From: Azolla caroliniana
Lineage: Eukaryota > Plantae > Polypodiophyta
Assembly: GCA_043228905.1 (NCBI GenBank)
Contig: JBHGNT010000012.1
Span: forward strand, 13,268,001 to 13,332,000
Direction: 5' to 3'
Length of the DNA: 64,000 bases
Shown here: positions 417 through 63,400 of the stretch, piece by piece
Position numbering within the stretch: the first letter of the stretch is position 1
Layout of the letters: each line of letters starts with the position of its first letter
Position numbers and translations under genes: made by a program
The notes under the pieces: generated by a model
The model's input: only the letters and a program-made list of their open reading frames with translations
Told to the model about the DNA's origin: nothing
Database searches by the model: none

Positions 417-1682
417 TTAGTTAGTCTATCAACCACAACCCAGATGGCATCATGGCCTTTCTAGGTACGAGGAAGGCTGACAATAAAATCCATGGATATA
501 CTTTCCCACTTATTATTGGGAATGTCCAAGGGATGTAAAAGTCTTGCGACTTTAAATCGCTCGGCTTTGTTAACATGACATTAGTGACATTTAGTCACAT
601 AGCTATGTGTGACGGGATGCATCTTAGGCCAATAAAATTGAGTGGAGATGAGAACGAGTGTACGATGTATTCCAGGGTGCCCTGCTGAGGGTGCATCATG
701 GCATTAAAAAAGAATCCTCTTTTTGACCTCAGTTAAATCTGGGACACAAACCTTCCCATTACGGTAGAGCAAACCGTTAGCAATGTGGAAGTATTCCTTC
801 AAGGATGTGGTGGTGTCTGTTCCAGACTCAACTCTTGCCCAGTATTTTGCGAAATAACTGTCATCAGAATACTTTCCTCGAAGGTGATCATAAAGATCTG
901 ATGATATTTCAGTGAAGCTAAGCATGTTAACTTCACGGATGCGACTTAGTGCATTAGCGACAGTGTTCATGGAACTTTTACGATATCGTATGGAAAAATC
1001 AAAGTCCTGGATGAGATCAGCCCATCGTGCCTTACGACCTTTCAGGTCTTGTTGGTCACAAAAATATTTCAAGGACTCGTGGTCCGTAGTTACCACAAAG
1101 TGATTTCCATAAAGATAATGGCGCCATGTTTTGAGCGCATGTATAACTGCAAATAATTCCTTTTCTTGAACGGTATACCGACATTGAGCAGAATCAAGTT
1201 TCTTACTCTCGAATGCTATTGGTTTACCATCTTGATACAAGACAGCACCTATAGCATAATCGCTTGCATCGGTTTCAACCTCAAAAGGTTTTGAAGGATC
1301 GGGTAAAAGAAGTGAAGGAGCCTTGCATACCAGGTCCTTGAGTTCCTTAAAGGCGAGGTCTTGTGTAGCATTCCAGACAATAGGTTTTGTGGACTTATGC
1401 GTTTGACCTTTTAGAAGATCAGTAAACGGCATCGTCAATTGGGAGTAATTACGAAGGGATTTTCGCAAAAACACGACAAAACCAAGGAATGATCGAACTT
1501 CTCGAATGTTCCGAAGAGTGGGCCAAAGCTTGATTTTCTCGATGCGAGAAGGATCAATTTCAACTCCTCGTTCGGTTATGAGATGTCCAAGATAAGTAGT
1601 TGATTTCTTGAAGAACTCACATTTTGAGATCTTCGCATCAAACTATTTGTCATGCAATGTTTGTAAAACAAAGCGGACATGT
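414..1682 (-). pseudogene. G1 pol segment (RT end, RNase H, integrase N-terminus); left part of copy A
   Basis: ORF 704..1474 has [10 protein letters not shown] and WRHYLYG; after its stop the frame continues as CHDAPSAGHPG and then DAIWVVVDRLTK; continues at 7014 across the copia insertion. Confidence 0.9.
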
Positions 1683-2295
1683 TGATGAGGAATAATCGTC
1701 ACTTTCCAAACTCCACCTCTCGGCCGCAACCAAAGAAACACACGAATCGTTGTTGCAGAAAATGGGAAATGCAGAAGTAATAGATGGACACGCGATTTAA
1801 CGTGGAAAACCCTGTACGGGAAAAAAACCACGGGAGTACAAGACTCCGAACCGAAACTATGCACAGAGAAGTATACAATGGCGAGCTGCAAGGCGACGAC
1901 CTTGAGCTCGCTGTCCTCGCCACAGGCGGCGGAAATACACAGAGGCGTCTACCTCTTCCTCTCTCTCACGCTCTATCTCTCTCTCTCTCACGGCTGCTCT
2001 CTCTTCACTCCTCTTGAGTGGAAAAACAGAAAAATGAGTAGCAACAATAAAACTGTTTCCCCTAAGTCATATTTATACACATATGACTTTAGGGCTATTT
2101 ACAACTATAGCCTCAAGGGCCCTTGGCAAACATATTCACAGATATGTCCCCGCATCCGGATCTCGCTCCGGGTACATTCGTCATTCGGCTCCGAAACCGG
2201 GGTCTTCATCATCCGGTTCCGAAACCGAAACCGGGCTTGTCGGCATTCATCTCCGACATCCGACCATCCCATCCGAAGGGACCGTAATCCCAACA
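1683..2295 (-). repeat. 3' LTR of C1
   Basis: Direct repeat of 6396-7008 with 4 substitutions seen by eye; PPT (GAAGGGGGAG on -) at ~2298-2307. Confidence 0.95.
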
Positions 2296-2305
2296 AACTC
2301 CCCCT

Positions 2306-4951
2306 TCACTTCGGCATGGGATGTCTCTCCAATCCGATCCTCTTCCGGCATGCTTCCAGCTTGTCGGGTGTGAGCACCTTGGTCAGCATATCCGACCCGT
2401 TCTCGTCCGTGTGGATCTTCGCCAGCACGAACTCCTTGTCTTCTATCCTTTCCCGGATCCAGTGATATCTTCGCTGGATGTGCTTTGTCCGGGAGTGATA
2501 GGCCGCGTTCTTCGCAAGGTGGATTGCACTCTGACTGTCGCAGTAGAGTCGGTACTCCTCCTGCCGGATACCGAGCTCTCTAATGAAGTCCTTCATCCAT
2601 ATTATTTCCTTGCCGGCTTCAACAGCCGCCATGTACTCCGCCTCCGTGGTTGACAACGCAACCGTCTTCTGCAGCCTCGACTGCCATGAAACAGCTCCCC
2701 CTGCATACGTCATCACATACCCTGATGTGGACCGGCTGGTATCTGCATCAGCCGACATATCCGAATCGGTAAAGCCGTCGAGTTCGGGCTTACCGGAGCC
2801 GAATCGGAGGCACACGTTTGTCGTGCCCTTCAGGTATCGGAGTATCCACTTGGCCGCGTTCCAATGCTCTTTGCCGGGATTGCTCATGTACCGGCTCACC
2901 ACTCCGACTGCATATCCTATGTCCGGTCGGGTACACACCATCGCGTACATCAAGCTCCCGACGGCAGAGGCATATGGTACTTTCATCATGTCCTCCTTCT
3001 CAGCCTTTGTCTTGGGGCTTTGCTTGCTGGACAGCTTGCAGTTTGTCGGGAGTGTTGACCCGACCGGTCTTGCTTCCGACATGTTGAACCGGTGAAGCAC
3101 CTTTGTCACGTACTTCTCTTGTGACAGCCACAACTGCTTCTTCTTCCGGTCCCGGATGATATGCATCCCTAGTATTTGCCTCGCCGGACCCAGGTCCTTC
3201 ATTGAGAAGGTTCGGTGAAGAGCCTTCTTCAGCATCCGAATCTTGACCTGGTCCCGTCCGACGATCAACATGTCGTCCACGTACAGGAGGAGTATTAGAA
3301 AGTCTCCTCCTTCGAACTTCTTCACAAACACGCAGTGGTCGGACTGCATTTTGAGGTACCCTTCGTCGGTCATGAAGGAGTCGAACTTCCGGTACCATTG
3401 CCGGGGAGCCTGCTTCAGTCCGTAAAGGCTCTTCTTCAACCGGCATACCAGGTGCTCCTTCCCTTTCTTCTCGAATCCTTCCGGTTGCTGCATGTAGATC
3501 TCTTCCTCGAGGTCACCGTGAAGGAATGCCGTCTTCACGTCCATCTGTTCTACCTCGAGGTCCATGCTTGCCGCTATGCTCAGCACCGTCCGGATGGAGG
3601 TCATCTTCACTACCGGGGCAAATATCTCGTCGAAGTCGACGCCCTTCTTCTGATGAAACCCCTTCACCACGATCCTGGCTTTGTATCTCGGGGGGTTTCC
3701 GGCATCTCCCGGTTTCAGCTTGAACACCCACTTGTTTCGAAGTGCCCGCTTTCCTTTCGGCAACTCCACAAGTTCATATGTGTGGTTCTCATGCAGGGAA
3801 TCCATCTCGTCCTGCATGGCACTCAACCACCTGCGGCTCTGGGTGTCATGCTTTGCTTCTTCAAAGCTCTCCGGCTCCCCCTCGTCGGTTAGCAGCACGT
3901 GCTCTGGTTCCGGAAATCTCCGGGGGGCCCTTCTCTCTCTTAGAGGATATCTCCGTTCCGGAGCTTCGGTAACCGGTTCTTCCGATTCTTCTTCATCCGA
4001 ATCTATTTCGGGATCGGGGCCGGTTCCGGTATCATTTTCATCTTCCTCGGCCGGTTCTGTTTCTTCACCGTCTTCGGCCGGATCTTCGAGTGTTAACCGG
4101 TCCCTTGCCGGTCGGGACTGCTCCTCGTAGAGTTTATCCTCACCGGTTGACTTGGAGCTCTTCATCTTCTTCTCCGACTCCCAGTCGGCGAGTGTCTTGT
4201 TCTCCATGAAGATGATATCACGACTCCGGAATATCTTCTTGTCGACCGGGTCCCATACTCGGTAGCCGAACTCGTCATCGCCGTAACCGAGGAATATGCA
4301 TGGCCGGGTCTTTGGATCTAGCTTTCCTCTCCGGTCCTTTGCCACATGCACGTATGCGAGACACCCGAACACCTTCAGATGCCGGTAGGATACTTCCCTA
4401 CCGGTCCACACTCTCTGCGGCGTGTCTCCGTCCAAAGGTACTGAGGGTGATCTGTTTATCACGTATGTCGCCGTCGACATCGCCTCAGCCCAAAACCCCT
4501 TGGGTAATTCCGCATGCGCCAGCATACTCCGGACCCTCTCCATTATGGTCCGGTTCATCCTCTCGGCCAGCCCGTTTAGTTCCGGCGTCTTCGGCACTGT
4601 AAACTCGAGTCGGATTCCCTTCGAGCGACAGTACTCCTGGAACTGCCCCCGGTATTCCCCTCCGTTATCCGCTCGTATCGCTTTCAGCTTCTTGCCGGAT
4701 TCCCTTTCCACTCTCGCGTGGAGTTCTTTGAAGACGCACAACACTTGGTCCTTTGTCTTCAACGGTGCCGTCCACAGCTTCCGGCTGTGATCATCAATGA
4801 ATGTTACGAAGTAATGGGCTCCGCCATGTGACTTCGTTTCTACCTGACACACATCAGTATGCACCAACTCCAATGGTGCGCTACGTCTCGTCGGTGGCCT
4901 TGAGTGGAAGGAGGTTCGGTTCTGCTTACCGGCCAGGCAATCGGTGCACAT
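2306..4951 (-). CDS. C1 integrase-RT-RNase H, out of frame with gag-PR
   Basis: 881-aa ORF with LELVHTDV, IRADNGGEY, NGLAERMNRTI, MDVKTAFLHG, LLYVDDML, STTEAEY and TKHIQRRYH. Confidence 0.92.
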   Translation of the reverse strand: MCTDCLAGKQNRTSFHSRPPTRRSAPLELVHTDVCQVETKSHGGAHYFVTFIDDHSRKLWTAPLKTKDQVLCVFKELHARVERESGKKLKAIRADNGGEYRGQFQEYCRSKGIRLEFTVPKTPELNGLAERMNRTIMERVRSMLAHAELPKGFWAEAMSTATYVINRSPSVPLDGDTPQRVWTGREVSYRHLKVFGCLAYVHVAKDRRGKLDPKTRPCIFLGYGDDEFGYRVWDPVDKKIFRSRDIIFMENKTLADWESEKKMKSSKSTGEDKLYEEQSRPARDRLTLEDPAEDGEETEPAEEDENDTGTGPDPEIDSDEEESEEPVTEAPERRYPLRERRAPRRFPEPEHVLLTDEGEPESFEEAKHDTQSRRWLSAMQDEMDSLHENHTYELVELPKGKRALRNKWVFKLKPGDAGNPPRYKARIVVKGFHQKKGVDFDEIFAPVVKMTSIRTVLSIAASMDLEVEQMDVKTAFLHGDLEEEIYMQQPEGFEKKGKEHLVCRLKKSLYGLKQAPRQWYRKFDSFMTDEGYLKMQSDHCVFVKKFEGGDFLILLLYVDDMLIVGRDQVKIRMLKKALHRTFSMKDLGPARQILGMHIIRDRKKKQLWLSQEKYVTKVLHRFNMSEARPVGSTLPTNCKLSSKQSPKTKAEKEDMMKVPYASAVGSLMYAMVCTRPDIGYAVGVVSRYMSNPGKEHWNAAKWILRYLKGTTNVCLRFGSGKPELDGFTDSDMSADADTSRSTSGYVMTYAGGAVSWQSRLQKTVALSTTEAEYMAAVEAGKEIIWMKDFIRELGIRQEEYRLYCDSQSAIHLAKNAAYHSRTKHIQRRYHWIRERIEDKEFVLAKIHTDENGSDMLTKVLTPDKLEACRKRIGLERHPMPK

Positions 4952-6364
4952 GCTTCACTGGAATAAGGTTGTCTTCTGCAAGCCTCTTCATCCCCTTCTC
5001 ACTCATGTGGCACAATCTCTTGTGCCACAGCTCACCGGCAGTGTCGGTTGCCACGTTCAACTCTTCCGGACTCAACCAGGCATTCATAAGGTACAGTGTG
5101 TTGACTTTCCGGGCCCGAGCCACTATCAGGCTCCCCTTGCTGAACTTCATTACGCCGTTCCGGATGCTACCTGTGTAGCCTTCATCGTCTAGCCTCCCGG
5201 CCGAAATCAGGTTCAATCGAACCTCCGGAACGTGTCGGACATCCTTCAGCAGCATTTTGCATCCGGTCGGGGTTGTCAACCACACGTCTCCTATGCCGGC
5301 AATTCGGCACGTACCTTCATTTCCCATCCGAACACAGCCATGCTCACCGGCTGTGTAGGATGAGAAGTATCTTCTCTCCGGGGTCAGGTGGAACGATGCT
5401 CCGGAATCGACCACCCAGGTCGTCTCATCGCCGGCAATGTTTAGTTCACCTTCTTCGGTGATGAGCATGATTTCCTCTTCACTTGCCGCGAGTGCCGTCG
5501 TTCCTTTCCGGTCCTGCCCTCGCCGATCCGGACCTCTCCGGTCCGTGGCTCCCCGGTATGCACCGTTTCTCTCCGGTGACTTCTTCGAATCAGTGTCGTC
5601 GGCTCCGTTGTCCTTTCGGTAATGCCAACAATTCTTCCGGAAGTGCCCCGGCTTCCCACAGTGGAAGCATGTGGGTCTTCCTCTTGACTGCGACCGGGTC
5701 CCCGACTTCTCCCGTCTTTGCGGACTCCGGTTCCATTGTCTTCCCCGTTCCGATTCGGTAAGCAGCGCCTTTGAGTCGGAGGCCGGTTCTTTATCTCTCC
5801 GACGTGCTTCTTCGTTCAAAATACTTGTCTTTACCGTTTGTAGGGACAAGTTATCTTCCGTGCAGGAGGTGCTGAGAGTCACCACCAAGTTCTCCCAGCT
5901 TTCCGGCAATGTACACATCAGAATGATGGCTTGCATTGCATCCTCCAGCGGGAACTTAATCGCCGCAAGCTGGTTCACGAATCCCATGAACGTGCTTACG
6001 TGTTCCACCATACTCTCGCCGTCCCGGTACTTGAGGTTCACTATCTTCCTCATCAGGGAGGTCCGGTTCAACGCATTCTTCCTCTCGTAGAGGCCCAACA
6101 GCTTCCGCCACATCTCATATGCGTTGGTGTCGTTCGCCACATGTTGTAGAACGCTCACGTCGACGTATTGCCGAATGGTTGCAACGGCTTTCCGGTTCAG
6201 AAGCCTCCATTCCGACTCAAGTACCCCTTTCGGTATTTCCGACCTGTCAATCGGTTCGTACAGGTCCCGAACAATCAGAAGATCCTCCATCTTGATCTTC
6301 CAGTCGGCGTAATTCTGCGCATTCAGCACCATCATCCCCGGCTGCCCGCTGCCGCCGCCTTCCA
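4926..6364 (-). CDS. C1 Gag-protease (UBN2-type gag, CCHC knuckle, aspartic protease, GAG-pre-integrase start)
   Basis: ORF 4926..6446 has CFHCGKPGHFRKNC, WVVDSGASFH and LWHKRLCHMS; likely start MEGGGS at 6364, just after the PBS. Confidence 0.9.
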
Positions 6365-6395
6365 TTTTCTGCAGCAGTTCGCTCTGATACCAAAT

Positions 6396-7008
6396 TGATG
6401 AGGAATAATCGTCGCTTTCCAAACTCCACCTCTCGGCCGCAACCAAGGAAACACACGAATCGTTGTTGCAGAAAATGGGAAATGCAGAAGTAATAGATGG
6501 ACACGCGATTTAACGTGGAAAACCCTGTACGGGAAAAAAACCACGGGAGTACAAGACTCCGAACCGAAACTATGCACAGAGAAGTATACAATGGCGAGCT
6601 GCAAGGCGACGACCTTGAGCTCGCTGTCCTCGCCACAGGCGGCGGAAATACACAGAGGCGTCTACCTCTTCCTCTCTCTCACGCTCTATCTCTCTCTCTC
6701 TCACGGCTGCTCTCTCTTCACTCCTCTTGAGTGGAAAAACAGAAAAATGAGTAGCAACAATAAAACTGTTTGCCCTAAGTCATATTTATACACATATGAC
6801 TTTAGGGCTATTTACAACTATAGCCTCAAGGGCCCTTGGCAAACATATTCACAGATATGTCCCCGCATCCGGATCTCGCTCCGGGTACATTCGTCATCCG
6901 GCTCCGAAACCGGGGTCTTCATCATCCGGTTCCGAAACCGAAACCGGGCTTGTCGGCATTCATCTCCGACATCCGACCATCCCATCCGAAGGGACCGTAA
7001 TCCCAACA
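6396..7008 (-). repeat. 5' LTR of C1
   Basis: Matches 1683-2295; followed on - by PBS TGGTATCAGAGC (6381-6392). Confidence 0.95.
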
Positions 7009-10000: not shown

Positions 10001-10587
10001 AAGTGGGTTAAGCCCTACGTACTCAACACCATTGTGGCTATGATTGTTTAATTACATAACAAAATATCGAAGTGACCAACGGGGATGTCAACAAAAAATT
10101 GTTGAAAAAGGGATGGTGAAAACGCCATTACTATTAGAGACATGAACTAATGTAATCATTAGATAAGGATAGAATATAGATAGATAGAAAGGAGAGAGAG
10201 AGAAAGAAGGGTGCCGATCCACCCGGACCACCCCCAAGCGAAGGGATCAAGACGGACTTGAGCCTCAATCAGCGTCCCATACCACCGCCGTGGCGTCGAG
10301 TCGTACCTGGTGCGGGCGCACTCGTTACAAGAGTTGACCCACCATAAGACAAAGTCTCGACGTAGTCAACAAGCTAATCAAATGAGGGTAGCTAGGCCTC
10401 TTATTTATAGCGATACCCAAGGCCCCTAGGCAAGTTCACACTTGGCCTTATGGGTTGTCTCAATCCCAAGGATTAAAATTAATCCTCCCCTTCTTTACAC
10501 TCTCATTTAACCCTCACACTTATCCACGTGTATAGAATACTACGGTAAATTCTCACCACAGGATATTCTATGGCCATGCCCGTAACA
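7014..10587 (-). mobile_element. G1 copy A, 5' part: LTR, partly deleted leader, gag, protease, RT start
   Basis: ORF 8017..9231 ([24 protein letters not shown]); LTR ~10132-10587 starts TGTTACGGGCATG on -; PBS and ~0.7 kb of leader missing at ~10128. Confidence 0.9.
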
Positions 10588-12221: not shown

Positions 12222-15200
12222 TCTTACGAGCATGACCATATAATATCCCCTGGTGAGAATTTATTGTAGTATTCTATACATGTGGATAAGTGTGAGGGTT
12301 AAACGATAGTGTAAAGAAAGGGAGGATTACTTTTAATCCGTGGGATTGAGACAACCCATTAGGCCAAGTGTGAACTTGCTTGGGGGCCTTGGGTATCGTT
12401 ATAAATATGAGGCCTAGCTACCCTCATTTGATGACATCTTGACTACATTGAGACTCTGTTTCATGGTGGGTCAACTCTTCTAGCGAGCACGCTAGCACCA
12501 GGTACAACTTGACACCACGGCGGTGGTATGGGACGCTGATCGAGGCTCGAGTCCGTCTCGATCCCTTCGCTCGGGGGTGGTCGGGTGGATCGACACCCTT
12601 CTTTCTCTCTCTCCTTTCTATCTATCTATCTTTTATCCTTATCATATGCTTACTTTAGATCATAACTCTAACAATTGGTATCAGAGCTTATGTTTCTAAT
12701 GTTTCCTTTGTTTGTTTTTGTCTTCTTGATGGATGGTGATCGATCGACGTGCAGTTGACCTTGATCCAAATAGCGATCAACAAAGGAACTTCGGTAACTC
12801 TTTCTTGTTTTTTTTTTTTGTTTTTTTTCTTCTCCCATCTAATCATGTATATGGTCAATATGAATTTATTTCATTGATTCAATGATGTTGTAGTGTAATT
12901 AATTGGTTGTATAAAACGTTTACATATGTGTATGAGGTCAATACCTCATTTGACATATATTTAATATGTGATTAGTGTCGTATGCGTACGAGGTTAATAC
13001 CTCAATTGCGTATTACATTCACATACATATGTTACGTATGCGTATGAGGTCAATACCTTGATTTTTTGTAAATGATATGCGTTTGGTGTCGTATGCATAA
13101 GAGGTCAATACCTCAATTGCGTATTACGATTAACCCTTATTATTGGATGTTTCATGTGTGTAGAGGCTATATGCCTCAATTATGTGTCTCGATTTCATCA
13201 TACGTTGGCTATTTGATGTTGGGATTTTTCTTAATATACGCATATGTGGTGTATACGTATTTGATCATATATGTGTGATAAATATACATATGTGTATGTT
13301 AGTTATAACGTAATTTCTATATTGAATGTTGTCCTTTTCGGGGAAAGGATCTTGGTGTCCGTCCTCACATTTTTGTGAGAACGGCGTAGTCATCATCCTT
13401 TTTTCAACAATCTTTTTGTTGAAATCCCCGTTGGTCACTTCGATTTCATTACGTAACGAAACGATCATAGCCACAATGATGGTGAGAACGTACGGCTTGA
13501 CCCACTTCATGTGAGGTCGCTCATATCCAAAATCCCTCCCTCATTACATGGATATGATGCCACCATGAGATCATTCTAACGAAAGGCATTCATAATGAAC
13601 CATGTGATGGGCCACGTGGGCCTACTATGAAAAAAGGGCTCATTTGACTTGACCATTGGGTTGCACTTTGGCATATGCCATCATAATTATGAGACTTGAG
13701 GTTAGGTAACATACCAACATAATTTGTGGTAAATGAGAGGGAAATAACGACTCTTGACATATATGTTTCTTTTAAGAAAACATATATGGGCAAATGCCTC
13801 GCATATCTCTTATACGCATAAAACGTTAAATATTCAACACGAGCAACCTATTTGGTTAGCTCAAGTGTTTAATGCATTTGTTCTCGAGTTCCAATATGAC
13901 CAAGACCATACAACATTATTGATACATATGACTATAATACATGTTTAGACTTTAGGTTTAAGTGCACTTCGGGGTCCTCGTAATAGGACTTAAAGAGCCG
14001 AAACCACATATGTGGGCACAGAAACATAGTTTATTGTTAACATTTTTTTCGTGTATAAACTCATGACTCGAACATACGTGGTTGAGCCTCGGGGAGCCGC
14101 CATGAAAAAACGATATAGAGATCAGGGAAAGACATTCATTTGTCACCCCCATGGTTTTAAAAACACCTTTGTGTTACCATAGTAACCTGATCTTGAACAT
14201 CATCTCATACGACTAGAGGGGTATTGACGTGAGATCAAGATATCGATTAATGTTGGCCCATGATATGTTTACATCACGACTTGATGTTATGACTATTTGT
14301 CTGACCTTATCGTATTGCTTTGCCAGAAATAATAATTCAATGGCTCAGAATAACGAACCGATGTCATCCGCTCAAGTAGAAGAAACTCAAGCAAATCCTC
14401 TTGGAGCAATCTCCATTGAGTCGTATTTCTTACAAATAAAAAATTTCCTTAGTTCAACCGCTCATCAAATGTCCGAACTTCGGCAATCTCAAAGTGCTCT
14501 CGAGGCACGTGTCATTAGTTTACAACATGACACTAAAAGACCCGATGAGCGTCAAGGTGAAACATCATTTGTCGTAAAGCCATTTACGATAGAAAAAAAA
14601 GAAAGAGCCGAAGAAGCAATATGCACGTGGTTGGGCCAATGGGAGTCTCATTTTGAGCTCTATCCCACGCCAGATAGTACGAAGATTGCATATGTCGGCA
14701 GAGAACTAGGGGGTAAGGTCGCCGCCTAGTGGCGTGGGCTCCGAACTTTGGGAAATTGCTCGATACTTAGACAAATTTTGTCACATTTTTTAAGGGCCCA
14801 TGATATGTTTACATCACGACATGATGTTATGACTATTTGTTTGACCTTATCCTATTTCTTTTCCAGAAATAATCATTGAATGGCTCAAAATAACGTCCCG
14901 ATGTCATCCGCTCAAAATAATCATTGGATGGCTCAAAATAACGACCCGATGGGAGTCTCATTTTGACCTCTATCCCACGCTAGATAGTACGAAGATTGCA
15001 TATGTCGGCCGAGAACTAGGGGGTAAGGCCGGCGCGTGGTGGTGTGAGCTCTGAACTTTGGGGAAATTTCCCGATACCTGGATAGACTTTGTCACAGTTT
15101 TTAAGGGCCAATTTCTGTAACCTCCCTCTCGAACCGAGGCAGCTCAAGCCTTAATGAACCTCTCTAGCATGAAGTTTTCTCGCTAGAAAACTATGTCCAC

Positions 15201-16009: not shown

Positions 16010-18936
16010 ATGTCCCGATTCAATTAACATATTTTGAACAACAACAACTTGATGAAATCTTAAATGATTTTCATGATGTTTTTCCAAGTGAACTACCTGA
16101 TGGGTTACCTCCTAAACGTAATATAGACCATCGTATAGATATTGTACCTGGTGTTGCACCAATAAGTATACCTCCGTATCGCTTAAATCGATCCGAAGAA
16201 GATGAGGTATCTAAGCAACTCAAGGACTATTTACGAATGGGTTATATACGTTATAGTAAATCTCCATGGGGTGCACCAGTTCTCTTGGTTAAAAAGAAAG
16301 AGGGCACATGGCGTATGTGTATTAATTATCAACGCTTGAATAAAGAAACGATCAAGAATTCGTATCCATTGCCCCGGGCTGACGATCTAATTGACCGTCT
16401 CCAGGGAGCTCGGTATTTTACGAAACTTGATCTCCGTACTGGCTACCATCAAATACGAATAAGTGAGGACGATGTTCCTAAAACGGCATTTCGTACGCGC
16501 TATGGCCATTACGAGTTTTTGGTTATGCCTTTTGGTTTGACCAATGCTCCGGCTACTTTTCAACAAGAAATGAATGACATTTTCCGAGAACAACTTGGAA
16601 AATTTGTCGTTATTTTCTTGGATGATATTTTAGTTTATAGCCGTACATTACAAGAACATGCTAGACATGTCCGCTTTGTTTTACAAACATTGCGTGACAA
16701 ACAGTTTTATGCGAAGATCTCAAAATGTGAGATCTTCAAGAAATCAATTACTTATCTAGGACATCTCATAACCGAACGAGGAGTTGAAATTGATCCTTCT
16801 CGCATTGAGAAAATCAAGCTTTGGCCCACTCTTCGGATTATTCGAGAAATTCGATCATTCCTTGGTTTTGTGGGGTTTTTGCGAAAGTCTCTTCGTAATT
16901 ACTCCCAATTGACGACGCCGTTTACTGATCTTTTAAAAGGTCAAACGCGTAAGTCTACAAAACCTATTGTGTGGAATGCTACACTAGACCTTGCCTTTAA
17001 GGAACTCAAGGACTTTGTTTGCAAGGCTCCTTCACTTCTTTTACCCGATCCTTCAAAACCTTTTGAGGTTGAAACCGATGCAAGCGATTATGCTATAGGT
17101 GTTGTCTTGAATCAAGATGGTAAACCAATAGCATTCGAGAGTAAGAAACTTGATTCTGCTCAATGTCGGTATACCGTTCAAGAAAAGGAATAATTTGCAG
17201 TTATACATGCGCTCAAAACATGGCGCCATTATCTTTATGGAAATCACTTTGTGGTAACTATGGACCACGAGTCCTTGAAATATTTTTGTGACCAACAAGA
17301 CCTGAAAGGTCGTAAGGCACGATGGGCTGATCTCATCCAGGACTTTGATTTTTCCATACGATATCGTAAAGGTTCCATGAACACTGTCGCTAATGCACTA
17401 AGTCGCATCCGTGAAGTTAACACGCTTAGCTTCACTGAAATATCATCAGATCTTTATGATCACCTTCGAGGAAAGTATTCTGATGACAGTTATTTCGCAA
17501 AATACTGGGGAAGAGTTGAGTCTGGAACAGACACCACCACATCCTTGAAGGAATACTTCCACATTGCTAACGGTTTGCTCTACCGTAATGGGAAGGTTTG
17601 TGTCCCAGATTTAACCGAGGTCAAAAAGAGGATTCTTTTTTAATGCCATGATGCACCCTCAGCAGGGCACCCTGGAATACATCGTACACTCGTTCTCATC
17701 TCCACTCAATTTTATTGGCCTAAGATGCGTCCTGACATACATAGCTATGTGACTAAATGTCACCAGTGTCAGGTTAACAAAGTCGAGCGACTTAAAGCTG
17801 CAGGACTTTTACATCCCTTGGACATTCCCAATAATAAGTGGGAAAGTATATCCATGGATTTTATTGTTAGCCTTCCCCGCACCCAAAAAGGTCATGATGC
17901 CATCTGGGTTGTCGTTGATCGACTAACTAAAATGGCCAGATTTATTGCTACTAAAACCACGGTAACAGCTCCTGAATTGGCTTACCAATTCGTTGACGAA
18001 TTGTTTCGTTTTTATGGGTTACCGATGGATATCGTGAGTGATCGAGATCCAAAGTTTACTAGTGACTTCTGGACACAAGTCTTTAAGAAGTTAGAAACTA
18101 CGTTGAGCATGAGCTCCACGGATCATCCTCAATCCGATGGACAGACAGAACGAGTAAATAAAATTATTGAGGACATGCTTCGAGCATACGTTGGTGCAAA
18201 ACCAACAAAATGGGAACGTTATCTCCCAATTTTGGAGTTTGCTTATAACAGCTCCAAGCATACGTCGACGGGATATAGTCCTTTTATGTTGATGTATGGT
18301 TTTCAGCCACGAGCCCCGATTGATGTTAATATACATCATGATGAGTTGCGAAGTACACAAAACTTTCTTCGGGATATGCAAGATATGTTGCATATTGCAC
18401 GAGATAATATAAAAACAGCTCAAGATAGAGCGCGTTTTTATGCCGATCATCATAGGCAACCTCGTGTATTCAACCCTGGACAGAAGGTATTTTTACGTGT
18501 ACCTCACAATTCTAAGACATTGTCTACGGGTAAGTGCGCTAAGTTAGCCCCACGGTTTTGTGGACCTTTTACAGTCCTCAAACGCATTGGGTCATCAGCC
18601 TATCGTCTCGCTCTTCCCAATGGTGTTGGAATTCATCCAGTCTTTCATGTGAGTCGTCTAAAAGAACTTCTAGGTTCTGGCGACAATACAGTTATGACTG
18701 AAACTCTGGTTACTTCTGAAGAATTATCTTCTAAACCACATGTACCAGAAAGAATTCTCGATGTTAAAACAAAAAATTTACGTACTAAAGAAATCCGAGA
18801 ATTGAAAATAAAATGGATGGATAAATCAATAAAAGATGCCACATGGGAACGCGAAAATACTCTTAGAACTAACTTCCCTAACTTTCCATTGCAAGAGTGC
18901 AATGTTTTAAAGAGGGGGAGTATGTTACGGGCATGA
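16010..18936 (+). pseudogene. G1 pol: RT, RNase H, integrase and C-terminal chromodomain
   Basis: ORFs 16237..17193 ([20 protein letters not shown]), 17251..17643 and 17725..18936 (SMDFI, SDRD, DGQTERVN, GPF, PERILD..KW..ATWE); nonsense codons at 17191 and 17641; PPT AAAGAGGGGGAG just before 18923. Confidence 0.93.
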
Positions 18937-19835
18937 CCATATAATATCCCGTGGTAAGAATTTACCGTAGTATTCTATACACGTGGATAAGTGTGAGGGT
19001 TAAACGAGAGTGTAAAGAAGGGGAGGATTACTTTTAATCCTCGGGATTGAGACAACCCATTAGGTCAAGTGTGAACTTGCCTGGGGGCCTTGGGTATCGC
19101 TATAAATAAGAGGCCTAGCTACCCTCATTTGATCATCTTTTGACTACATCGAGACTCTGCTCGTGTGGTGGGTCATCTCTTGTAGCGAGCGCGCCAGCAC
19201 CAGGTACGACTCGACGCCACGGCGGTGGTATGGGACGCCGATCGAGGCTCGAGTCCGTCTCGATCCCTTCGCTCGGGGGTGGTCTGGTGGATCGGCACCC
19301 TTCTTTCTCTTTCTCCTTTCTATCTTTCATTTCTTTATCCTTATCTTAAGCTTACTTTAGTACCTAGATCTATAATATTATGTTACGGGCTTGACCATAT
19401 AATATCCCGTGGTAAGAATTTACCGTAGTATTCTATACACGTGGATAAGTGTGAGGGTTAAACGAGAGTGTAAAGAAGGGGAGGATTACTTTTAATCCTC
19501 GGGATTGAGACAACCCATTAGGTCAAGTGTGAACTTGCCTGGGGGCCTTGGGTTTCGCTATAAATAAGAGGCCTAGCTACCCTCATTTGATCATCTTTTG
19601 ACTACATCGAGACTCTGCTCGTGTGGTGGGTCATCTCTTGTAGCAAGTGCGCCAGCACCACGTACGACTCGACGCCACGGCGGTGGTATGGGACGCCGAT
19701 CGAGGCTCAAGTCCATCTCGATCCCTTCACTCGGGGGTGGTCGGGTGGATAGGCACCCTTCTTTCTCTTTCGCCTTTCTATCTTTCATTTCTTTATCCTT
19801 ATCTTAAGCTTACTTTAGTACCTAGATCTATAATA
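18923..19835 (+). repeat. Two G1 LTRs head-to-tail (18923-19377 and 19381-19835) joined by TTA
   Basis: Both are 455 bp, TGTTACGGG...TATAATA; first is preceded by PPT, second is followed by PBS at 19838. Confidence 0.95.
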
Positions 19836-19837
19836 TT

Positions 19838-22306
19838 TGGTATCAGATTTTTGTACTAATGTTTCTTTGTTTTTCATTTGTCTTTTGATTGATGCTGATC
19901 GATCGTTGTGCGGTTGGCCTTGATCCAGACAACGATAAACAAAGAACTTCGGTAACTCTTTCCATAATTTTTCTTTCTATTCTCTTTTCTCCCATCTAAT
20001 CATGTGTTTAGTTTATATGTAATTTTTTTCATTAAGTCAATGATGTTGTAGTGGTCTTTAATTGATTATCTAAAACGTTTACATATGTGCACGAGGTCAA
20101 TACCTCGTTTGACATATTAATAATATGTGATGAGTGTCGTATGCGTACGAGGTTAATACCTCAATTACGTATTACGTTCACGAACATATGTTACGTTTGC
20201 GTATGAGTTTAATACCTTGATTTGTTGTAAACGATATGCGTTTGGTCTCGTATGCGTAAGAGGTCAATACCTCCATTGCGTATTACGATGATCTCTTATT
20301 TGTGGATATTTCGTGTGCGTAGAGGTATATACCTCGATTACGTATCTCGATCACATCATTTGTGGCTATTTAATATAACGATATGTTTAATATAGGCATA
20401 TGTGGTCACATATATACGTATTTGATCGTATATATGTGATAAGTAAACATATGTGTATATTCGTTATTACATGATTATATCGAAAGTTGTCATGGTCGGG
20501 AAAAGGATGTTGGTGGCCGTCCTTACATTTTTGTGAGAATGGCGTTGTCACCATCCCTTTTTCAACATTTTTTTATTGTTGATAACCTCGTTGACGACCT
20601 CGATTTCGTTACGTAAAGAAACGCCAATAGCCAAAATGATGTTGAGTACGTAGGGCTTGACCCACTTCAAGTGAGGTCGCTCCAATGACGCACGTATCCA
20701 ACATCCCTCCCTCGTTACATGGATACGATGCCACCATGAGCTCGTTCTTACGAGAGGCATTCGTAATGACGTGACCATATGATGGCCCACGTGAGCCTAC
20801 TACGAAACGAGGGCTCATTTGGCTTGACCATTAGGTTGCCCTTTGGCATATGCCATCGTAATTACGAGACTTGAGGTTAGGTAACATACCAACATAGTTT
20901 TGGTAAATGAGGGCGAAATAAGGACCTTGACATATATGTTCTTTTAAAAAAACATATATGATCAATTGCCTCGCATATCTCTTATACGCATCAAACATTA
21001 AGCATTCGAGAAGAGCAACTTACTTGGTTGGCTCAAGTGTTTAATGTATTTGTTCTCGAGGTCTCGAGTTCAAATATGACCAAGACCATACAACATCCTT
21101 GATACATATGACTATAACACATGTTTAGACTTAAGGTCTAAGTGCACCTCGGGGTCCTCGTAATAGGACTTAAAGAGCAGAAACCACATATGTGGGCACC
21201 GAAACATAGTTTATTGTTAACATTTTTTTTCGTGTATAAACTATTCATGATGCGAACATACATGGTTGAGCCTCGGGGAGCCACCATGAAAAAATCGATA
21301 TAGAGATCAGGGAAAGACTTTTTTTTGTCACCCCCATGGTTTTTAAAACACCTTTGTGTTACCATAGTAACCTGATCTTGAACCTCATCTCATACGTCTA
21401 GAGGGGTATTGACGTGAGATAATGATATCGATTAATGCTCGCCCATGATATGTTTACATCACGACATGATGTTATGACTATATCTCTGACCTTATCCTAT
21501 TTCTTTTCCAGAAATAATCTTTAATGGCTCAAATTAACGACCCGATGTCATCCGCTCAAGCGGAAGGAACTCAAGGGAATCCTCCTGGACAAATGTCCAC
21601 TGAGATGTATTTGGCACAAATAGCCCAATACCTTAGTTTCACCGCTCAACAGATGACCGAACTTCGGCAATCTCAGAGTGCTCTTGAGGCACGTGTCATT
21701 AGTCTACAACGTGAGACTAATAGACCTGATGAGCGACAAGGTGAACCATCATTTGTCGTTAAGCCATTTACGGGAGACAAAAAGGAAAGAACCGAAGAAG
21801 CAATCTGCACATGGCTGGGACGATGGGAGTCTCATTTTGAGCTCTATCCCACGCTAGATAGTACGAAGATTGCATATGTCGGCCTAGAACTCGGGGGTAA
21901 GGCCGCCGCCTGGTGGCGTGGGCTCCGTACTATGGGGAAATTGCCCGATACCTGGACAGATTTTGTCACGGTTTTTAAGGACCAATTTCTACAACCTCCC
22001 TCTCGAACCGAGGCAGCACAAGCTTTAATGAACCTCTATAGCAGGAAATTTTCCTCGCTAGAAGACTATGTTCACCATGCTAGAATCCAAATCCAAAAAT
22101 CGGGTCTAGAAGGGGACAATTGGTTGATAGCTTGTTTTGTCAATGGCATCCCCAATTTGGACTATCACTGGATAGTGCACGATAAGGATCCAAAATCCTT
22201 CGAAGAGGCCGTTGAAATAGTTCTTCGCTATCAACGCACTTCGAAGAAGGACCATAACAAACCCAACGAAGCGCCCGGGACTAAGCAGTTGCAATTTGTT
22301 GGGAAA
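19838..22306 (+). mobile_element. G1 PBS, 1.7-kb 5' leader and gag, truncated before the zinc knuckle
   Basis: ORF 21524.. MAQINDPM...QFVGKR, then a switch to inverted pol. Confidence 0.9.
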
Positions 22307-23697
22307 CGGATGCGACTTAGTGCATCAGCGACAATGTTCATGGAACCTTTACGATATCGTATGGAAAAATCAAAGTCCTGGATGAGATCAGCCCATCGTG
22401 CCTTACGACCTTTCAGGTCTTGTTGGTCACAAAAATATTTCAAGGACTCGTGGTTCGTAGTTACCACAAAGTGATTTCCATAAAGATAATGGCGCCATGT
22501 TTTGAGCGCATGTATAACTACAAATAATTCCTTTTCTTGAACGATATACCGATATTGAGCAGAATCAAGTTTCTTACTCTCGAATGCTATTGGTTTACCA
22601 TCTTGATACAAGACATCACCTATAGCATAATCGCTTGCATCGGTTTCAACCTCAAAAGGTTTTGAAGGATCAGGTAAAAGAAGTGAAGGAGCCTTGCAAA
22701 CTAGGTCCTTGAGTTCCTTAAATGCAAGGTCTAGTGTAGCATTCCACACAATAGGTTTTGTAGACTTACGCGTTTGACCTTTTAAAAGATCAGTAAACGG
22801 CATCGTCAATTGGGAGTAATTACGAAGAGACTTTCGCAAAAACCCCACAAAACCAAGGAATGATCGAACTTCTCGAATATTCCGAAGAGTGGGCCAAAGC
22901 TTGATTTTCTCAATGCGAGAAGGATCAATTTCAACTCCTCGTTCGGTTATGAGATGTCCTAGATAAGTAATTGATTTCTTGAAGAACTCACATTTTGAGA
23001 TCTTCGCACGCAATGTTTGTAAAACATAGCGGACATGTCTAGCATGTTCTTGTAATGTACGGCTATAAACTAAAATATCATCCAAGAAAATAACGACAAA
23101 TTTTCCAAGTTGTTCTCGGAAAATGTCATTCATTTCTTGTTGAAAAGTAGCTGGCGCATTGGTCAAACCAAAAGGCATAACCAAAAACTCGTAATGGCCA
23201 TAGCGCGTACGAAATGCTGTTTTAGGAACATCATCCTCACTTATTCGTATTTGATGGTAGCCAGTACGGAGATCAAGTTTCGTAAAATACGAAGCTCCCT
23301 GGAGACGGTCAATTAGATCGTCAGCCCGGGGCAATGGATACGAATTCTTGATCGTCACTTTATTCAAGCATCGGTAATTAATACACATACGCCATGTGCC
23401 CTCTTTCTTTTTAACCAAGAGAACTGGTGCACCCCATGGAGATTTACTATAACGTATATAACCCATTCGTAAATAGTCCTTGAGTTGCTTAGATACCTCA
23501 TCTTCTTCGGATCGACTTAAGCGATACGGAGGTATACTTATTGGTGCAACACCAGGTACAATATCTATACGATGGTCTATATTACGTTTAGGAGGTAACC
23601 CATCAGGTAATTCACTTGGAAAAACATCATGAAAATCATTTAAGATTTCATCAAGTTGTTGCTGTTCAAAATATGTTAATTGAATCAGGACATTATC
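22304..23697 (-). pseudogene. Inverted G1 RT-RNase H fragment
   Basis: Core of ORF 22231..23790 ([20 protein letters not shown]); both ORF ends are chimeric. Confidence 0.9.
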
Positions 23698-32700: not shown

Positions 32701-34011
32701 CGTCATTGGAGCGACCTCACTTGAAGTGGGTCAAGCCCTACGTACTCAACATCATTATGGCTATTGGCGTTTCTTTACGTAACGAAATCGAGGTCATCAA
32801 CGGGGTTATCAACAATAAAAAATTGTTGAAAAAGGGATGGTGACAACGCCATTCTCACAAAAATGTGAGGACGGCCACCAACATCCTTTTCCCGACCATG
32901 ACAACTTTCGACATAATCACGTAATAACGAATATACACATATGTTTACTTTTCACATATATACGATCAAATACGTATATATGTGACCACATATGCCTATA
33001 TTAAACATATCTTTATATTAAATAGCCACAAATGATGTGATCGAGATACGTAATCGAGGTATACACCTCTACGCACACGAAACATCCACAAATAAGAGAT
33101 CATCGTAATACGCAATTGAGGTATTGACCTCTTACGCATACGAGACCAACCGCATATCGTTTACAACAAATCAAGGTATTAAACTCATACGCAAACGTAA
33201 CATATGTTCGTGAAAGTAATACGTAATTGAGGTATTAACCTCGTACGCATACGACACTCATCACATATTATTAATATGTCAAACGAGGTATTGACCTCGT
33301 GCACATATGTAAACGTTTTAGATAATCAATTAAAGACCACTACAACATCATTGATTTAATGAAAAAAAATGACATATAAACTAAACACATGATTAGATGG
33401 GAGAAGAGAGAATAGAAAAACATTTCTGGAAAGAGTTACCGAAGTTCTTTGTTGATCGCTGTCTGGATCAAGGCCGACCGCACATCAATCGATCACCATC
33501 AATCAAACGACAAATGAAAAACAAATAAACATTAGTACATAAATCTGATACCAAATATTAGAGATCTAAGTACTAAAGTAAGCTTAAGATAAGGATAAAG
33601 TAATGATAAATAGAAAGGAGAAAGAGAAAGAAGGGTGTCGATCCACCCGACCACCCCCGAGCGAAGGGATCAAGACGGACTCGAGCCTCGATCGGCGTCC
33701 CATACCACCGTCGTGGCGTCGAGTGGTACCTGGTGCTGGCGCGCTCGCTACAAGAGTTGACCCACCACAAGAGCAGAGTCTCGATGTAGTCAAAAAGATG
33801 ATCCAATGAGGGTAGCTAGGCCTCTTATTTATAGCGATACCCAAGGCCCCCAGGCAAGTTCACACTTGACCTAATGGGTTGTCTCAATCCCGAGGATTAA
33901 AAGTAATCCGCCCCTTCTTTACACTCTCGTTTAACCCTCACACTTATCCACGTGTATAGAATACTACGGTAAATTCTCACCACGGGATATTAAATGGTCA
34001 TGCCCGTAACA
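29797..34011 (-). mobile_element. G1 copy D nested in C2 gag; most of pol and both ends of the 3' LTR are deleted
   Basis: 5' LTR 33556-34011, PBS ~33545-33553, leader, gag 31865->, PR and RT start to ~30006, LTR remnant 29797-30000; flanks CGCGT (29792-29796) and CGCAT (34012-34016) look like a decayed TSD. Confidence 0.88.
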
Positions 34012-60400: not shown

Positions 60401-63400
60401 TGGCCAGATCTTGGCCTTTATAAAGAGGGACTTTCTCCTCATGTAAATAGAAGAGATCTCTGTATTTTTCTCCCTCCTACCTATGTATATTACTGAACAA
60501 ATGTGCTTTCTCATATTTCTTTACCTCATCAAGTGTGGGAATTTCAGCCTTGGCTAGAAGAACTGCCCTTCTTTGATCAAACGGCAGGTTGAGATGTTTC
60601 AAAAATTGCATGGTTCTTCTTTGAGCAGAAATTTCCTTGCTCTTACATTGAGGATGATTGCACATTGTCACAGGCGAGAAATGATTGTATTCTGCCCATA
60701 GACACTCCAGCTCTATGGCATATTCCTGAATCATCCTATCTCCCTGCCAAACAACATCTATCACTTGCTCAATTTGAAATACTCTCATGTTGTTTCCCCT
60801 CCCAGCATGTCTTTTGCAATTTCTCCCATATCTCCTTCACACTTCAAATTCCATCAACTGTTGTGGCGATTGATGGAATCATGGAGTTGAGAAGCCACGT
60901 GTACAAAGACATGTGGGTAGCTCTCCATGCTTTCCATTCATTGCTCGTTATGACAGGAGGTTCTTTCTCTTCTCCCGTTAGGTAGCCGTCAAGGTTTCTC
61001 CCTGTCAAGGCACCTATAATCCGACACAACTAGCTCAAGTATGTGGCTGGTCCATCGAGTTTGAACTCAACTGGGAGGAGTTCAAGTCGGGGTGGTGGTT
61101 GTGTTCCTGTCACACCTCTAGATGCTACAATCTCAGCCTGCTTCATGTATTTCACCAATGTTTTCACCTCATCCCAAATAAATTGGTATTTAGCATGTCC
61201 AGTTGTTTTCTAAGCATATACATCCATTTGGCAGCCATCCTCACATTAAAGTATAGATTTGCATGATCTGTCATCACGCCAACAGGTTTACTAGAGGTAG
61301 TGAAATATGTTATGACGGGTTGAAGGAATTGAGATCCCATCAAGAGAGGGATAAGATCAGCATAGTGGCGTCCACAATATTCTTGAAATTTAAAAGTAAC
61401 ATTGATATGGCTCTAGAAACTCCATACCTTCACGCAAGCATACCTGAACCTTCATGTAGATGTGGATAAATCACAAACGTTGAATCCCTGGAGAATGCAC
61501 TGAACTTATAGATGCCTTATGCAAGAATAGATAGGTACTTGATAAACAATGCTAAGTCTCAGGAAATCAATAAATTATGCATATGAATGTTCCTCTATGA
61601 CACATTGCTAAAAGAATAACATTTCTAACATCTAAATATTCATAATCTGTGATTTGACATTTTTGCATTGTGCAGTGTCTCTTCTCTTGCAGGGTTTATG
61701 TCAAATCAGGAGTCTAGTTTTGTAACCATAGGCCAGCGAGTTTTGGCAAATCCACTCAGGTATTTCACTATGCATGACTTCTCTATATGTTTCTGAGCAT
61801 GGTGTCCTGTATCTGATAATTTTATAGTCGTTGAAACAGGGTGCGTTTCCATTATGGGCATCCGGATGTTTTTGAAAGGCTTTTTCACATTAGTAGAGGT
61901 GGCATCAGCAAAGCTTCCAAAGGTGTTAACCTGAGTGAGGATATCTTTGCAGGTAGTGAAAACCACACAATGTGCCTTTCTAGTACGGCTTGCAGCTCAT
62001 AGACATTGCTTTTAAAATTTATGACCACATATTCAGGATTTAATACCACTTTGCGCCGTGGTCTTGTTACACACCACGAATACATACAAGTTGGAAAAGG
62101 AAGGGATGTGGGCCTGAATCAGATAAGCCTGTTTGAAGCCAAAATTGCGAATGGAAATGGTGAACAGACAATGAGTAGAGATGTGTATCGCCTTGGTCAT
62201 CGAATGGATTTCTTCAGGATGTTGTCTGTTTATTTCACAACTGTTGGGTTTTACTTCAACACTCTTGTGAGGAGATACTCTTGATTCTTTAATTTTTCTT
62301 TCTTTCCTCAGGGATTTTATGTTTATTTTGTTTCTGCACTTATGTTTGGCTTTAAGTTTTTTACTTGATTGCAGATTGTCGTACTTACTGTGTATGTATT
62401 CCTCTATGGGAGAATTTATCTTGCCCTTAGTGGTCTAGAAGCTAGCATGTACCACTACGCAGGCCTAGAAGATAATTCTTCTCTGCAGGCTGCCTTGGCA
62501 TCTCAATCATTTGTCCAGATTGGACTGTTAATGGCTCTTCCCATGGTGATAGAGATTGGACTCGAGCAAGGATTCCGTAAGGCCCTCAGTGAACTTATCA
62601 TAATGCAACTGCAACTTGCGTCAGTTTTTTTCACTTTTTCAATGGGTACAAAAGTTCACTTCTATGGGCGAACATTGCTTCATGGAGGTGCAAAATATAG
62701 GTCTACTGGACGTGGATTTGTCGTATTCCATGCTAAGTTTGCTGAAAATTACCGTCTCTACTCACGTAGCCATTTCACAAAAGGACTTGAGCTACTAATA
62801 CTTCTGATAGTGTATAATATATATGGAGTTACAGTGCATAAGACAGTTCCCTACCTACTCATTACATTCTCACTGTGGTTCCTAGTAGGGACATGGCTGT
62901 ATTCACCTTTCTTGTTTAATCCATCAGGATTTGAATGGCAAAAAATTGTTGATGATTGGGATGATTGGAACAAGTGGGTGAGCAATCGTGGTGGGATTGG
63001 GGTTCCATCAGACAAGAGTTGGGAGTCATGGTGGGATGAAGAACAAACTCATCTCAGTACTTCTGGGCTAAGGGGTCAAATTATCGAAATACTGCTGTCA
63101 ACGAGGTTCCTCTTATATCAGTATGGCCTTGTCTACCATCTAAACATTGCGCATGGCAACAAGAGTATTCTGGTGAGTCCAAACATCCATATGTTACATG
63201 TCAGATTAAAGGTTCCAGGTTGGAGCATTACGATTAATTAATATAAATATCCCAACTGCAGGTGTATGCTTTATCGTGGCTGGTCATTGTGTTTTTGTTG
63301 GCTTTGTTCAAGGTAAATTAGCAAATAACTATGTCATTCTTATAATGGAGCTCAATAACTTTTGATTAACATTGTAGTAACTACTGACTGCCAGGTGGTC

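Follow-up and report, generated by a model that had tools for sequence, protein, structure and literature searches.

A hairpin array within the leader intron of a fern Ty3/gypsy chromovirus: a candidate signal of unspliced retrotransposon RNA

The long 5' leader of an LTR retrotransposon in the fern Azolla caroliniana contains five regularly spaced stem-loops, and the question raised by this locus is what such an array might do for the element. The window, that is the whole stretch of DNA analysed, comprises 64,000 nucleotides (GCA_043228905.1, contig JBHGNT010000012.1, positions 13,268,001 to 13,332,000), and the element, here named G1, is of Ty3/gypsy type with LTRs of 455 nt. Its 5' end is laid out as follows.

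19381..19835, + strand: 5' LTR of the G1 chromovirus copy (sequence, self-BLAST, TRF period 458)
19838..19847, + strand: primer-binding site (PBS), which we take to be of tRNA-Met type (sequence; the identical word heads many families)
21524..22308, + strand: start of gag (Pfam Retrotrans_gag and Ty3_capsid), its ATG 12 nt 3' of an intron acceptor described below

The gag of this copy is interrupted at about 22308, and the G1 Gag carries a CCHC knuckle. Protease, RT/RNase H and chromodomain integrase were found with Pfam in G1-family fragments of the window, the Chromo domain on the family fragment scoring just below the Pfam cut-off (24.9 vs 25.1 bits), and the order LTR-gag-integrase-LTR is seen in two elements elsewhere (L252 and L253). 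With LTRs, PBS, gag, protease, RT/RNase H and an integrase with chromodomain, the family is a Ty3/gypsy chromovirus; its best named integrase matches are from ferns (46–54%). An identity with moss RLG1/Tcn1 was considered and dropped, since G1 and a sister family described below have a Met-type PBS and the best integrase matches are fern. Most members of the Tcn1 clade, including moss RLG1, lack a tRNA PBS and self-prime, according to the accessible part of PMC6317226, and placement of G1 in the Galadriel clade is likely, judged from PBS and host range only against the same part of that source. In the 523 Mb assembly searched, the 40 best matches to the array are all at least 99% identical, thus one G1 lineage is young.

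The initial annotation had placed five GAGGT-N4-ACCTC cores about 250 nt 3' of the PBS, and re-reading of the sequence bears this out for the slightly wider form GAGGT-N4-RCCTC: the cores start at 20093, 20149, 20205, 20260 and 20322, unit 1 lying 255 nt after the PBS start at 19838, and the third is imperfect as described (GAGTT..ACCTT at 20205). The two further arrays it listed were also found, in copy A with cores at 12934, 12990, 13046, 13101 and 13163 and the same 56/56/55/62 spacing as in G1, and in copy D on the minus strand.

20083..20117, + strand: hairpin unit 1, top 20093–20106 (sequence, fold, variation among copies)
20141..20172, + strand: hairpin unit 2, top 20149–20162 (variation among copies, lower-stem shuffles)
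20194..20233, + strand: hairpin unit 3, top 20205–20218, broken in the young lineage (copy alignment)
20252..20283, + strand: hairpin unit 4, top 20260–20273 (copy variation, lower-stem shuffles)
20315..20345, + strand: hairpin unit 5, top 20322–20335, one base longer in some old lineages (copy alignment)
12934..13177, + strand: array of copy A, an older lineage (sequence, motif matches)
33056..33298, - strand: array of copy D (sequence, motif matches)

Within the window GAGGT-N3-6-ACCTC occurs 11 times against 0.14 expected. The array consists of decayed tandem repeats, a degenerate 56-nt unit with a higher-order period of 111 nt (TRF), and Rfam gave seven weak matches in 18500–22000, none near its cut-off. 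Each unit is predicted to fold into a top of five pairs closed by a four-base loop, which a small, asymmetric internal loop separates from a lower stem rich in wobble pairs. The array region folds better than 200 of 200 shuffles on either strand (sense z -5.21, antisense -4.35). When the core was held fixed and the flanks shuffled, the sense-strand z of the G1 lower stems ranged from -1.9 to -3.0 over all five units, and the antisense was weaker in units 2–5 and stronger in unit 1; copy A units 3 and 5 gave no lower-stem signal by the same procedure. Unit 5 of copy A, previously read as a plain compensatory swap, is in fact 15 nt long, by a one-base insertion plus a G, and other old lineages have T..G or G..G at the altered position. 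The loops of units 1–4 are CAAU or UAAU and not self-complementary, which makes the suggested role in dimerisation unlikely; an AUAU loop occurs only in unit 5, whose loop differs in old lineages.

The array does lie in the leader, as first described, but not merely there: it sits inside a spliced intron.

19952..21511, + strand: leader intron, GT-AG, 1560 nt, with the array inside (exact loss in L220, near-exact loss in L221)
21486..21511, + strand: branch-point-like CTGAC, pyrimidine tract and 3' splice site (sequence; same arrangement in the sister family)
L220 (G000:C2:8676469) and L221 (G000:C857:3554): intron-less copies, full elements L252 and L253 (GT-AG ends)

The donor-like site is at 19951/19952, the array begins 141 nt 3' of it, and the acceptor AG ends at 21511. 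Searching the genome with a probe for the spliced junction returned two matches (backwards control two), both members of the G1 family: L220 joins 19951 to 21512 exactly, and L221 has the same joint plus a single additional A within a run of A. Each keeps two LTRs, PBS, gag and integrase, hence spliced RNA can be copied; their LTR pairs are 98.6% and 97.1% alike, one LTR being truncated in each so that target-site duplications could not be compared. The two copies are only 95% identical and differ after the PBS, and so are probably separate events, and since the overlap at the joint is a single base, the plain reading is that a spliced RNA was reverse transcribed. The exact and near-exact losses from genomic copies are genomic proof of a leader intron in G1. 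A probe for the unspliced donor found 638 genome matches (backwards control 90), of which 76 of 85 sampled are G1, and intron-less copies thus amount to some 0.3–0.4% of those visible to the probes. Counted from an assumed transcription start at 19595, the leader contains 54 ATGs unspliced and three when spliced, and splicing explains the long leader better than the translational control proposed earlier. Contigs of related organisms contained no splice joint (15 of 45 joints viewed, plus 6 of 6 in a second set) and some of them continue through the acceptor in unspliced form; as to splicing, these contigs are uninformative in either direction. If splicing is rare, however, the rarity of intron-less copies requires no sorting signal.

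Selection on the array was assessed in an alignment of 19860–21400 from 123 distinct copies (138 collected, 15 duplicates removed), which leaves out copies with large rearrangements and about half of which were found via the array itself. Changes on branches with at least three tips were compared with single-copy changes on a tree from which the array was excluded. The counts were 38/305 (lineage/single-copy) at 144 hairpin sites, stems and loops together, vs 70/262 at 127 other array sites, an odds ratio of 0.47 (p 0.0005), or 0.45 and 0.31 when four and six tips were required. Tree-free counts agree, transversion polymorphisms in at least six copies being present at 2/144 hairpin sites vs 17/127 others (p 0.00015). 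The hairpins are thus better kept than the divergent linkers, their positions changing 2–3 times less in replicated lineages (p at most 0.002), and even the youngest G1 copies carry the array. Loops are constrained as much as stems, which suggests that sequence is read as well as shape.

Evidence from pairing is thinner. Eight pairs have a second type in at least 11 of the 123 copies: one double change, five G-U, one A-A to U-A and one break, in unit 3, with no A-C second types among them. The double change is C-G/U-A at 20092–20107 (77 vs 41 of 123 copies), and could stem from CpG decay flanking the conserved core on both sides; at pair 20146–20167, U-A is found in 81, U-G in 28 and C-G in 11 of the 123. 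A test of events for sense pairing was not significant (14:4 vs 117:74, p 0.21), and at four or more tips gave 12:1 (p 0.034) with some double counting. The excess of G-U favouring the sense strand is modest, and the stems in these tests were defined on that strand. The top stems barely vary, so that covariation is limited to the one double change; across units it was weak (13–38 of 500 shuffles), one register being forced on unlike lower stems. Changes within the family thus mostly keep pairing, with little covariation in the strict sense.

The units are clearly redundant, in that some can be lost in successful lineages: unit 3 is broken in the youngest lineage, and in two sister copies, located on different contigs, the top of unit 2 is missing as well. 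In a sample drawn by the donor only, 65 of 76 G1 copies keep at least three units, eight keep one or two and three have none, through two deletions and one truncation. Whole-array deletions in L091, L176, L274 and L290 have different breakpoints, and exact siblings of the L091 and L274 junctions were absent among the 40 best matches, a search of little power. Only three deletions are shared across the 1540 nt aligned. Intron-less and array-less copies are all single, but dead copies would be expected to carry such one-off deletions regardless of the segment removed. Taken with the constraint and folding results, the sequence data support a real, selected RNA structure on the sense strand.

Further evidence comes from a sister family. 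A metagenome scan found five loci, one with a leader (L170), whose family is abundant in the same genome as G1 and whose Gag is 69% identical to that of G1. The two leaders align only over one 164-nt block, at 83% identity. The sister donor-like site lies 119 nt after the PBS start vs 113 in G1, and a branch-pyrimidine-CAG acceptor lies 8 nt 5' of the ATG; among 25 sister loci there are 24 donors, and AG is present in 17 of 23 acceptors. Donor and acceptor thus recur at corresponding positions despite an otherwise unalignable leader, and a sister leader intron is predicted; a genome-wide probe for its junction had no matches. At the same place in this intron lies an array of different sequence (two units of 122 nt and at least three of 83 nt) whose folding is confined to the sense strand (z -4.05 vs -1.08 antisense). 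It contains GAGGT without the hairpin top, and the G1 motif was not found in the sister family (best model match E 0.05, opposite strand). In young sister copies the unit number varies (L170:5975–6435; L198, L206, L210), and a GGCC word lies in the loop region of the 83-nt hairpin.

These observations bear on whether the array might simply be a functionless, decaying minisatellite of a palindromic unit, its resemblance to a copia sequence (see below) being due to chance or capture. The 111-nt higher-order period, the unit number that varies among related organisms and within the sister family, the loss of units from successful lineages and the self-pairing of direct repeats of the near-palindrome TRCGTA would all be expected of such a repeat. 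However, hairpin sites are 2–3 times more constrained than adjacent linkers in replicated lineages, 73 of 76 donor-sampled copies keep at least one unit and 65 at least three, and the sister family has an independent sense-folding array at the same place, so that we regard this explanation as quite improbable.

The segment shared by the two leaders is a second candidate signal.

21261..21420, + strand: conserved structured block, common with the sister family (83% identity to L170)

The block lies towards the 3' end of the intron, corresponds to L170:595–757 and is also found in L195–L219, and contigs of related organisms carry it amid unlike flanks. Double changes occur at 4 of 38 predicted pairs, in two helices, of a structure chosen with the alignment in view. 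It is more constrained than the array: lineage changes over 21261–21398 (9/305) are the lowest in the intron, elsewhere 0.12–0.25, although on a short-alignment tree that included the block there was no excess constraint (24/224, like the flanks), the excess being restored once each region was excluded from the tree. The block is a candidate core packaging, export or internal-entry element. It is a better candidate than the array for a core packaging signal, which makes the array less likely to be one. The proposal that the array has a role tied to genomic RNA has meanwhile gained weight, since the array is lost with the intron from spliced RNA, even if the core packaging signal would be better placed in 21261–21420.

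The block ends only about 100 nt 5' of the gag ATG and is strongly conserved, so that one could imagine the unspliced RNA to serve as message, ribosomes reaching gag at the block through internal entry or shunting, with splicing a rare accident and the array tuning translation or RNA stability; the lack of splice joints in the contigs examined from related organisms would fit. Yet the same set of donor, branch-like word, pyrimidine tract and AG is present in both families although their leaders do not align there, and two independent losses coincide with the intron ends, and we consider this reading highly improbable.

The hairpin top of G1 recurs in an unrelated superfamily.

6603..6668, - strand: two copies of the hairpin top in the 5' LTR of a copia element (Pfam RVT_2 and Retrotran_gag_2)
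1890..1955, - strand: two hairpin tops in the 3' LTR of the same element (self-comparison, motif matches)

A two-unit pattern matched 3,338 places genome-wide vs 229 for the control; 23 of the first 50 were not G1, and these lie in both LTRs of one Ty1/copia clade that includes the window element at 1682–7008. In this element's sense the form is GAGGT-N4-GCCTC, and in the 5' LTR the tops lie about 125 and 175 nt 3' of a TATA-like box. GAGGT-N4-RCCTC as a whole occurs about 13,740 times per strand in the genome vs 1,483 for the control. In an alignment of 23 of 27 PBS-sampled copia copies, with the structure again chosen with the alignment in view, the second hairpin is paired in 96.7% of cells, has double changes at two pairs (G-C/A-U and U-A/A-U) and a fixed U-G closing pair; the first has unrelated sequence in some lineages and a motif match in others. 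The chance of a match is 0.0016 per shuffled LTR, and over many families perhaps a few percent by our own estimate, the match having been found post hoc; a captured fragment is a possible source. Among the copies viewed from other copia families, one (L147) has a single matching top.

Several features of these copia elements were observed in passing. The LTR 3' of the TATA-like box is a chain of hairpins (6395–7008 and 1682–2295, - strand; L080–L162), the box itself lies in an inverted repeat, and the first hairpin swaps sequence wholesale between lineages while staying paired. The LTR U3 of the clade (L061–L074) contains 54-nt tandem repeats of variable number 5' of the box. A second copia family (L081, L083, L102, L147, about 130–180 nt after the PBS) has a 600–700 nt leader, with a donor-like site in U5 and a bulged hairpin of its own, and one lineage has a single GAGGT-N4-ACCTC.

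The match with copia challenges the idea of a Gag-specific role, since a copia clade has the top and a sister family with 69% identical Gag does not. As copia and gypsy Gags are also distant from each other, a host reader is likelier than Gag; binding of the array by a host export factor would be one possibility, hinted at only indirectly by the motif common to the copia clade.

A host factor might instead bind DNA. The units could be sites for a dimeric protein (half-site RAGGY, four-base spacer) in an intronic enhancer or insulator, and likewise in the copia LTR, as the near-invariant top stem beside a loop that differs between families, the genomic excess of the motif and the nearly equal folding of the G1 antisense would allow. 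The Su(Hw) insulator of Drosophila gypsy offers a precedent, being an array of repeated sites with AT-rich spacers just 3' of the 5' LTR of a gypsy element. That insulator is a DNA element, however, whereas G1 substitutions lean to sense-strand RNA pairing, with five G-U vs no A-C lineage variants. The lower stems are asymmetric, with registers that differ in units 1, 2 and 3, the spacer is fixed in four units while old lineages have an extra base in that of unit 5, the copia site sits within covarying hairpins, and an enhancer alone would not account for the rarity of intron-less copies. We therefore consider DNA sites unlikely.

Alternatively, the AG/GU within each stem could act as a decoy 5' splice site that binds U1 and curbs splicing or premature polyadenylation in the AU-rich intron. 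Four of the 11 best-scoring GT sites of the region are unit sites, equal to the true donor (6 of 9 matches to the consensus), and the array is only 141 nt from that donor; in unspliced EVADE RNA, U1 suppresses premature termination, according to the accessible part of PMC5580714. But AG/GT is automatic given GAGGT, the pairing strand and lower stems are also under selection, the copia sites are poorer U1 matches and lie in both LTRs, and the sister array keeps GAGGT and not the hairpin top. In our view this is rather improbable.

We propose instead that the array is a redundant signal that sends unspliced RNA to export and packaging, probably via a host protein, and hold the case for this reading to be evenly balanced. 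As to its reader, a host protein is a tentative possibility and Gag an unlikely one. Spliced RNA, with three upstream ATGs rather than 54, would be the main Gag-Pol message. If so, the intron would have to hold the routing information, because spliced RNA retains all the classical elements of reverse transcription and can be copied, and yet the family keeps the intron; something in the intron would make replication prefer the unspliced form. This is supported by two intron-less matches vs 638 with the unspliced donor, and none for the sister family. Above its wobble-rich lower part, each unit would display a GAGGU/RCCUY stem capped by a four-base loop, and a host protein bound to the array would let intron-holding RNA exit the nucleus and reach particles, the array acting as a redundant, family-specific module beside the block at 21261–21420. 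The earlier suggestion of a multivalent RNA signal thus keeps its core, a selected sense-strand structure, while its dimerisation, Gag-specific and translational versions are weakened. More speculative, and somewhat doubtful, is a broader version in which fern chromoviruses sort message from genome by means of a 1.5-kb non-coding intron ahead of gag, and in which gypsy and copia lineages each adopted the hairpin of that intron, as the site of one host RNA-binding protein, for full-length RNA; it would then be a common plant counterpart of retroviral export elements.

Retroviral packaging signals sit 3' of the splice donor. The G1 array resembles them as a set of stem-loops between donor and gag, present on unspliced RNA only and lost on splicing, in an element with a CCHC Gag, and its sense stem-loops are conserved (as predicted, with one double change). 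It lacks the self-complementary loop for dimerisation, the G1 acceptor precedes gag so that spliced RNA keeps Gag-Pol, PBS and both ends, the intron is non-coding, and roles in binding and packaging are putative. There is a likeness too with the IAP RTE, the MusD MTE and the structured leader of CaMV, structured cis elements for nuclear exit that are proposed to export intron-holding retroelement RNA via a host route (PMC12786077, in the part available). The G1 array is likewise structured and confined to unspliced RNA, but it consists of five repeats within a 5' intron, its top also occurs in an unrelated superfamily, and the likeness is by description only.

According to the accessible part of the same 2025 review (PMC12786077), RNA export of LTR elements has not been studied directly in plants, and the intron-bearing plant elements named there are only Ogre and EVADE. 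These, EVADE being Ty1-copia, share with G1 a functional spliceosomal intron and two RNA forms that do different jobs (PMC12786077, PMC6317226 and PMC5580714, each as available in part). Their introns interrupt or separate coding domains and govern the Gag:Pol ratio, whereas that of G1 is wholly 5' of gag; in Arabidopsis Ty3/Gypsy no conserved splicing was found, in the portion of PMC5580714 available. BARE also keeps separate RNA pools for translation and replication, but by two promoters and capping (PMC12786077, in part), whereas those of G1 would be split by splicing. The palindrome region of Sireviruses likewise consists of repeated, fast-turning, non-coding hairpin palindromes in a plant LTR element, but it is a cis-regulatory LTR part of a copia genus (PMC4728375, in part), and the G1 array is intronic, 255 nt past the PBS. 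In the openly accessible literature covered, we came across neither a plant chromovirus with a leader intron 5' of gag nor any description of the hairpin motif; the leader intron containing the array is new here.

How plant LTR retrotransposons sort RNA for translation and for export or packaging is a largely open question. The G1 family offers two small, separable candidate signals, array and block, which make it testable with short RNAs and reporters, and if the hairpin common with copia does bind a host protein, this would suggest that the two superfamilies make use of a common host factor.

A few other features of the locus may be recorded. The array motif was not seen within 1.5 kb of eight matches, of 150, to an N6/N4 DNA methyltransferase family, a first intron possibly having been missed; the family has at least 150 scored matches in the genome (e.g. 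L187–L194). At 18921–19837 two LTRs stand in direct tandem, 97% alike, the end of another copy abutting the start of G1. A further family copy at 10129–10146 lacks PBS, donor and array, its LTR end jumping to the equivalent of about 20538 in G1. In the young lineage the PBS match is shortened, two bases after TGGTATCAGA differing from older copies (19838–19855; L124, L135, L137), and this lineage is the most recently amplified one. At 62369–63241, on the + strand, lies part of a host gene for callose (1,3-beta-glucan) synthase.
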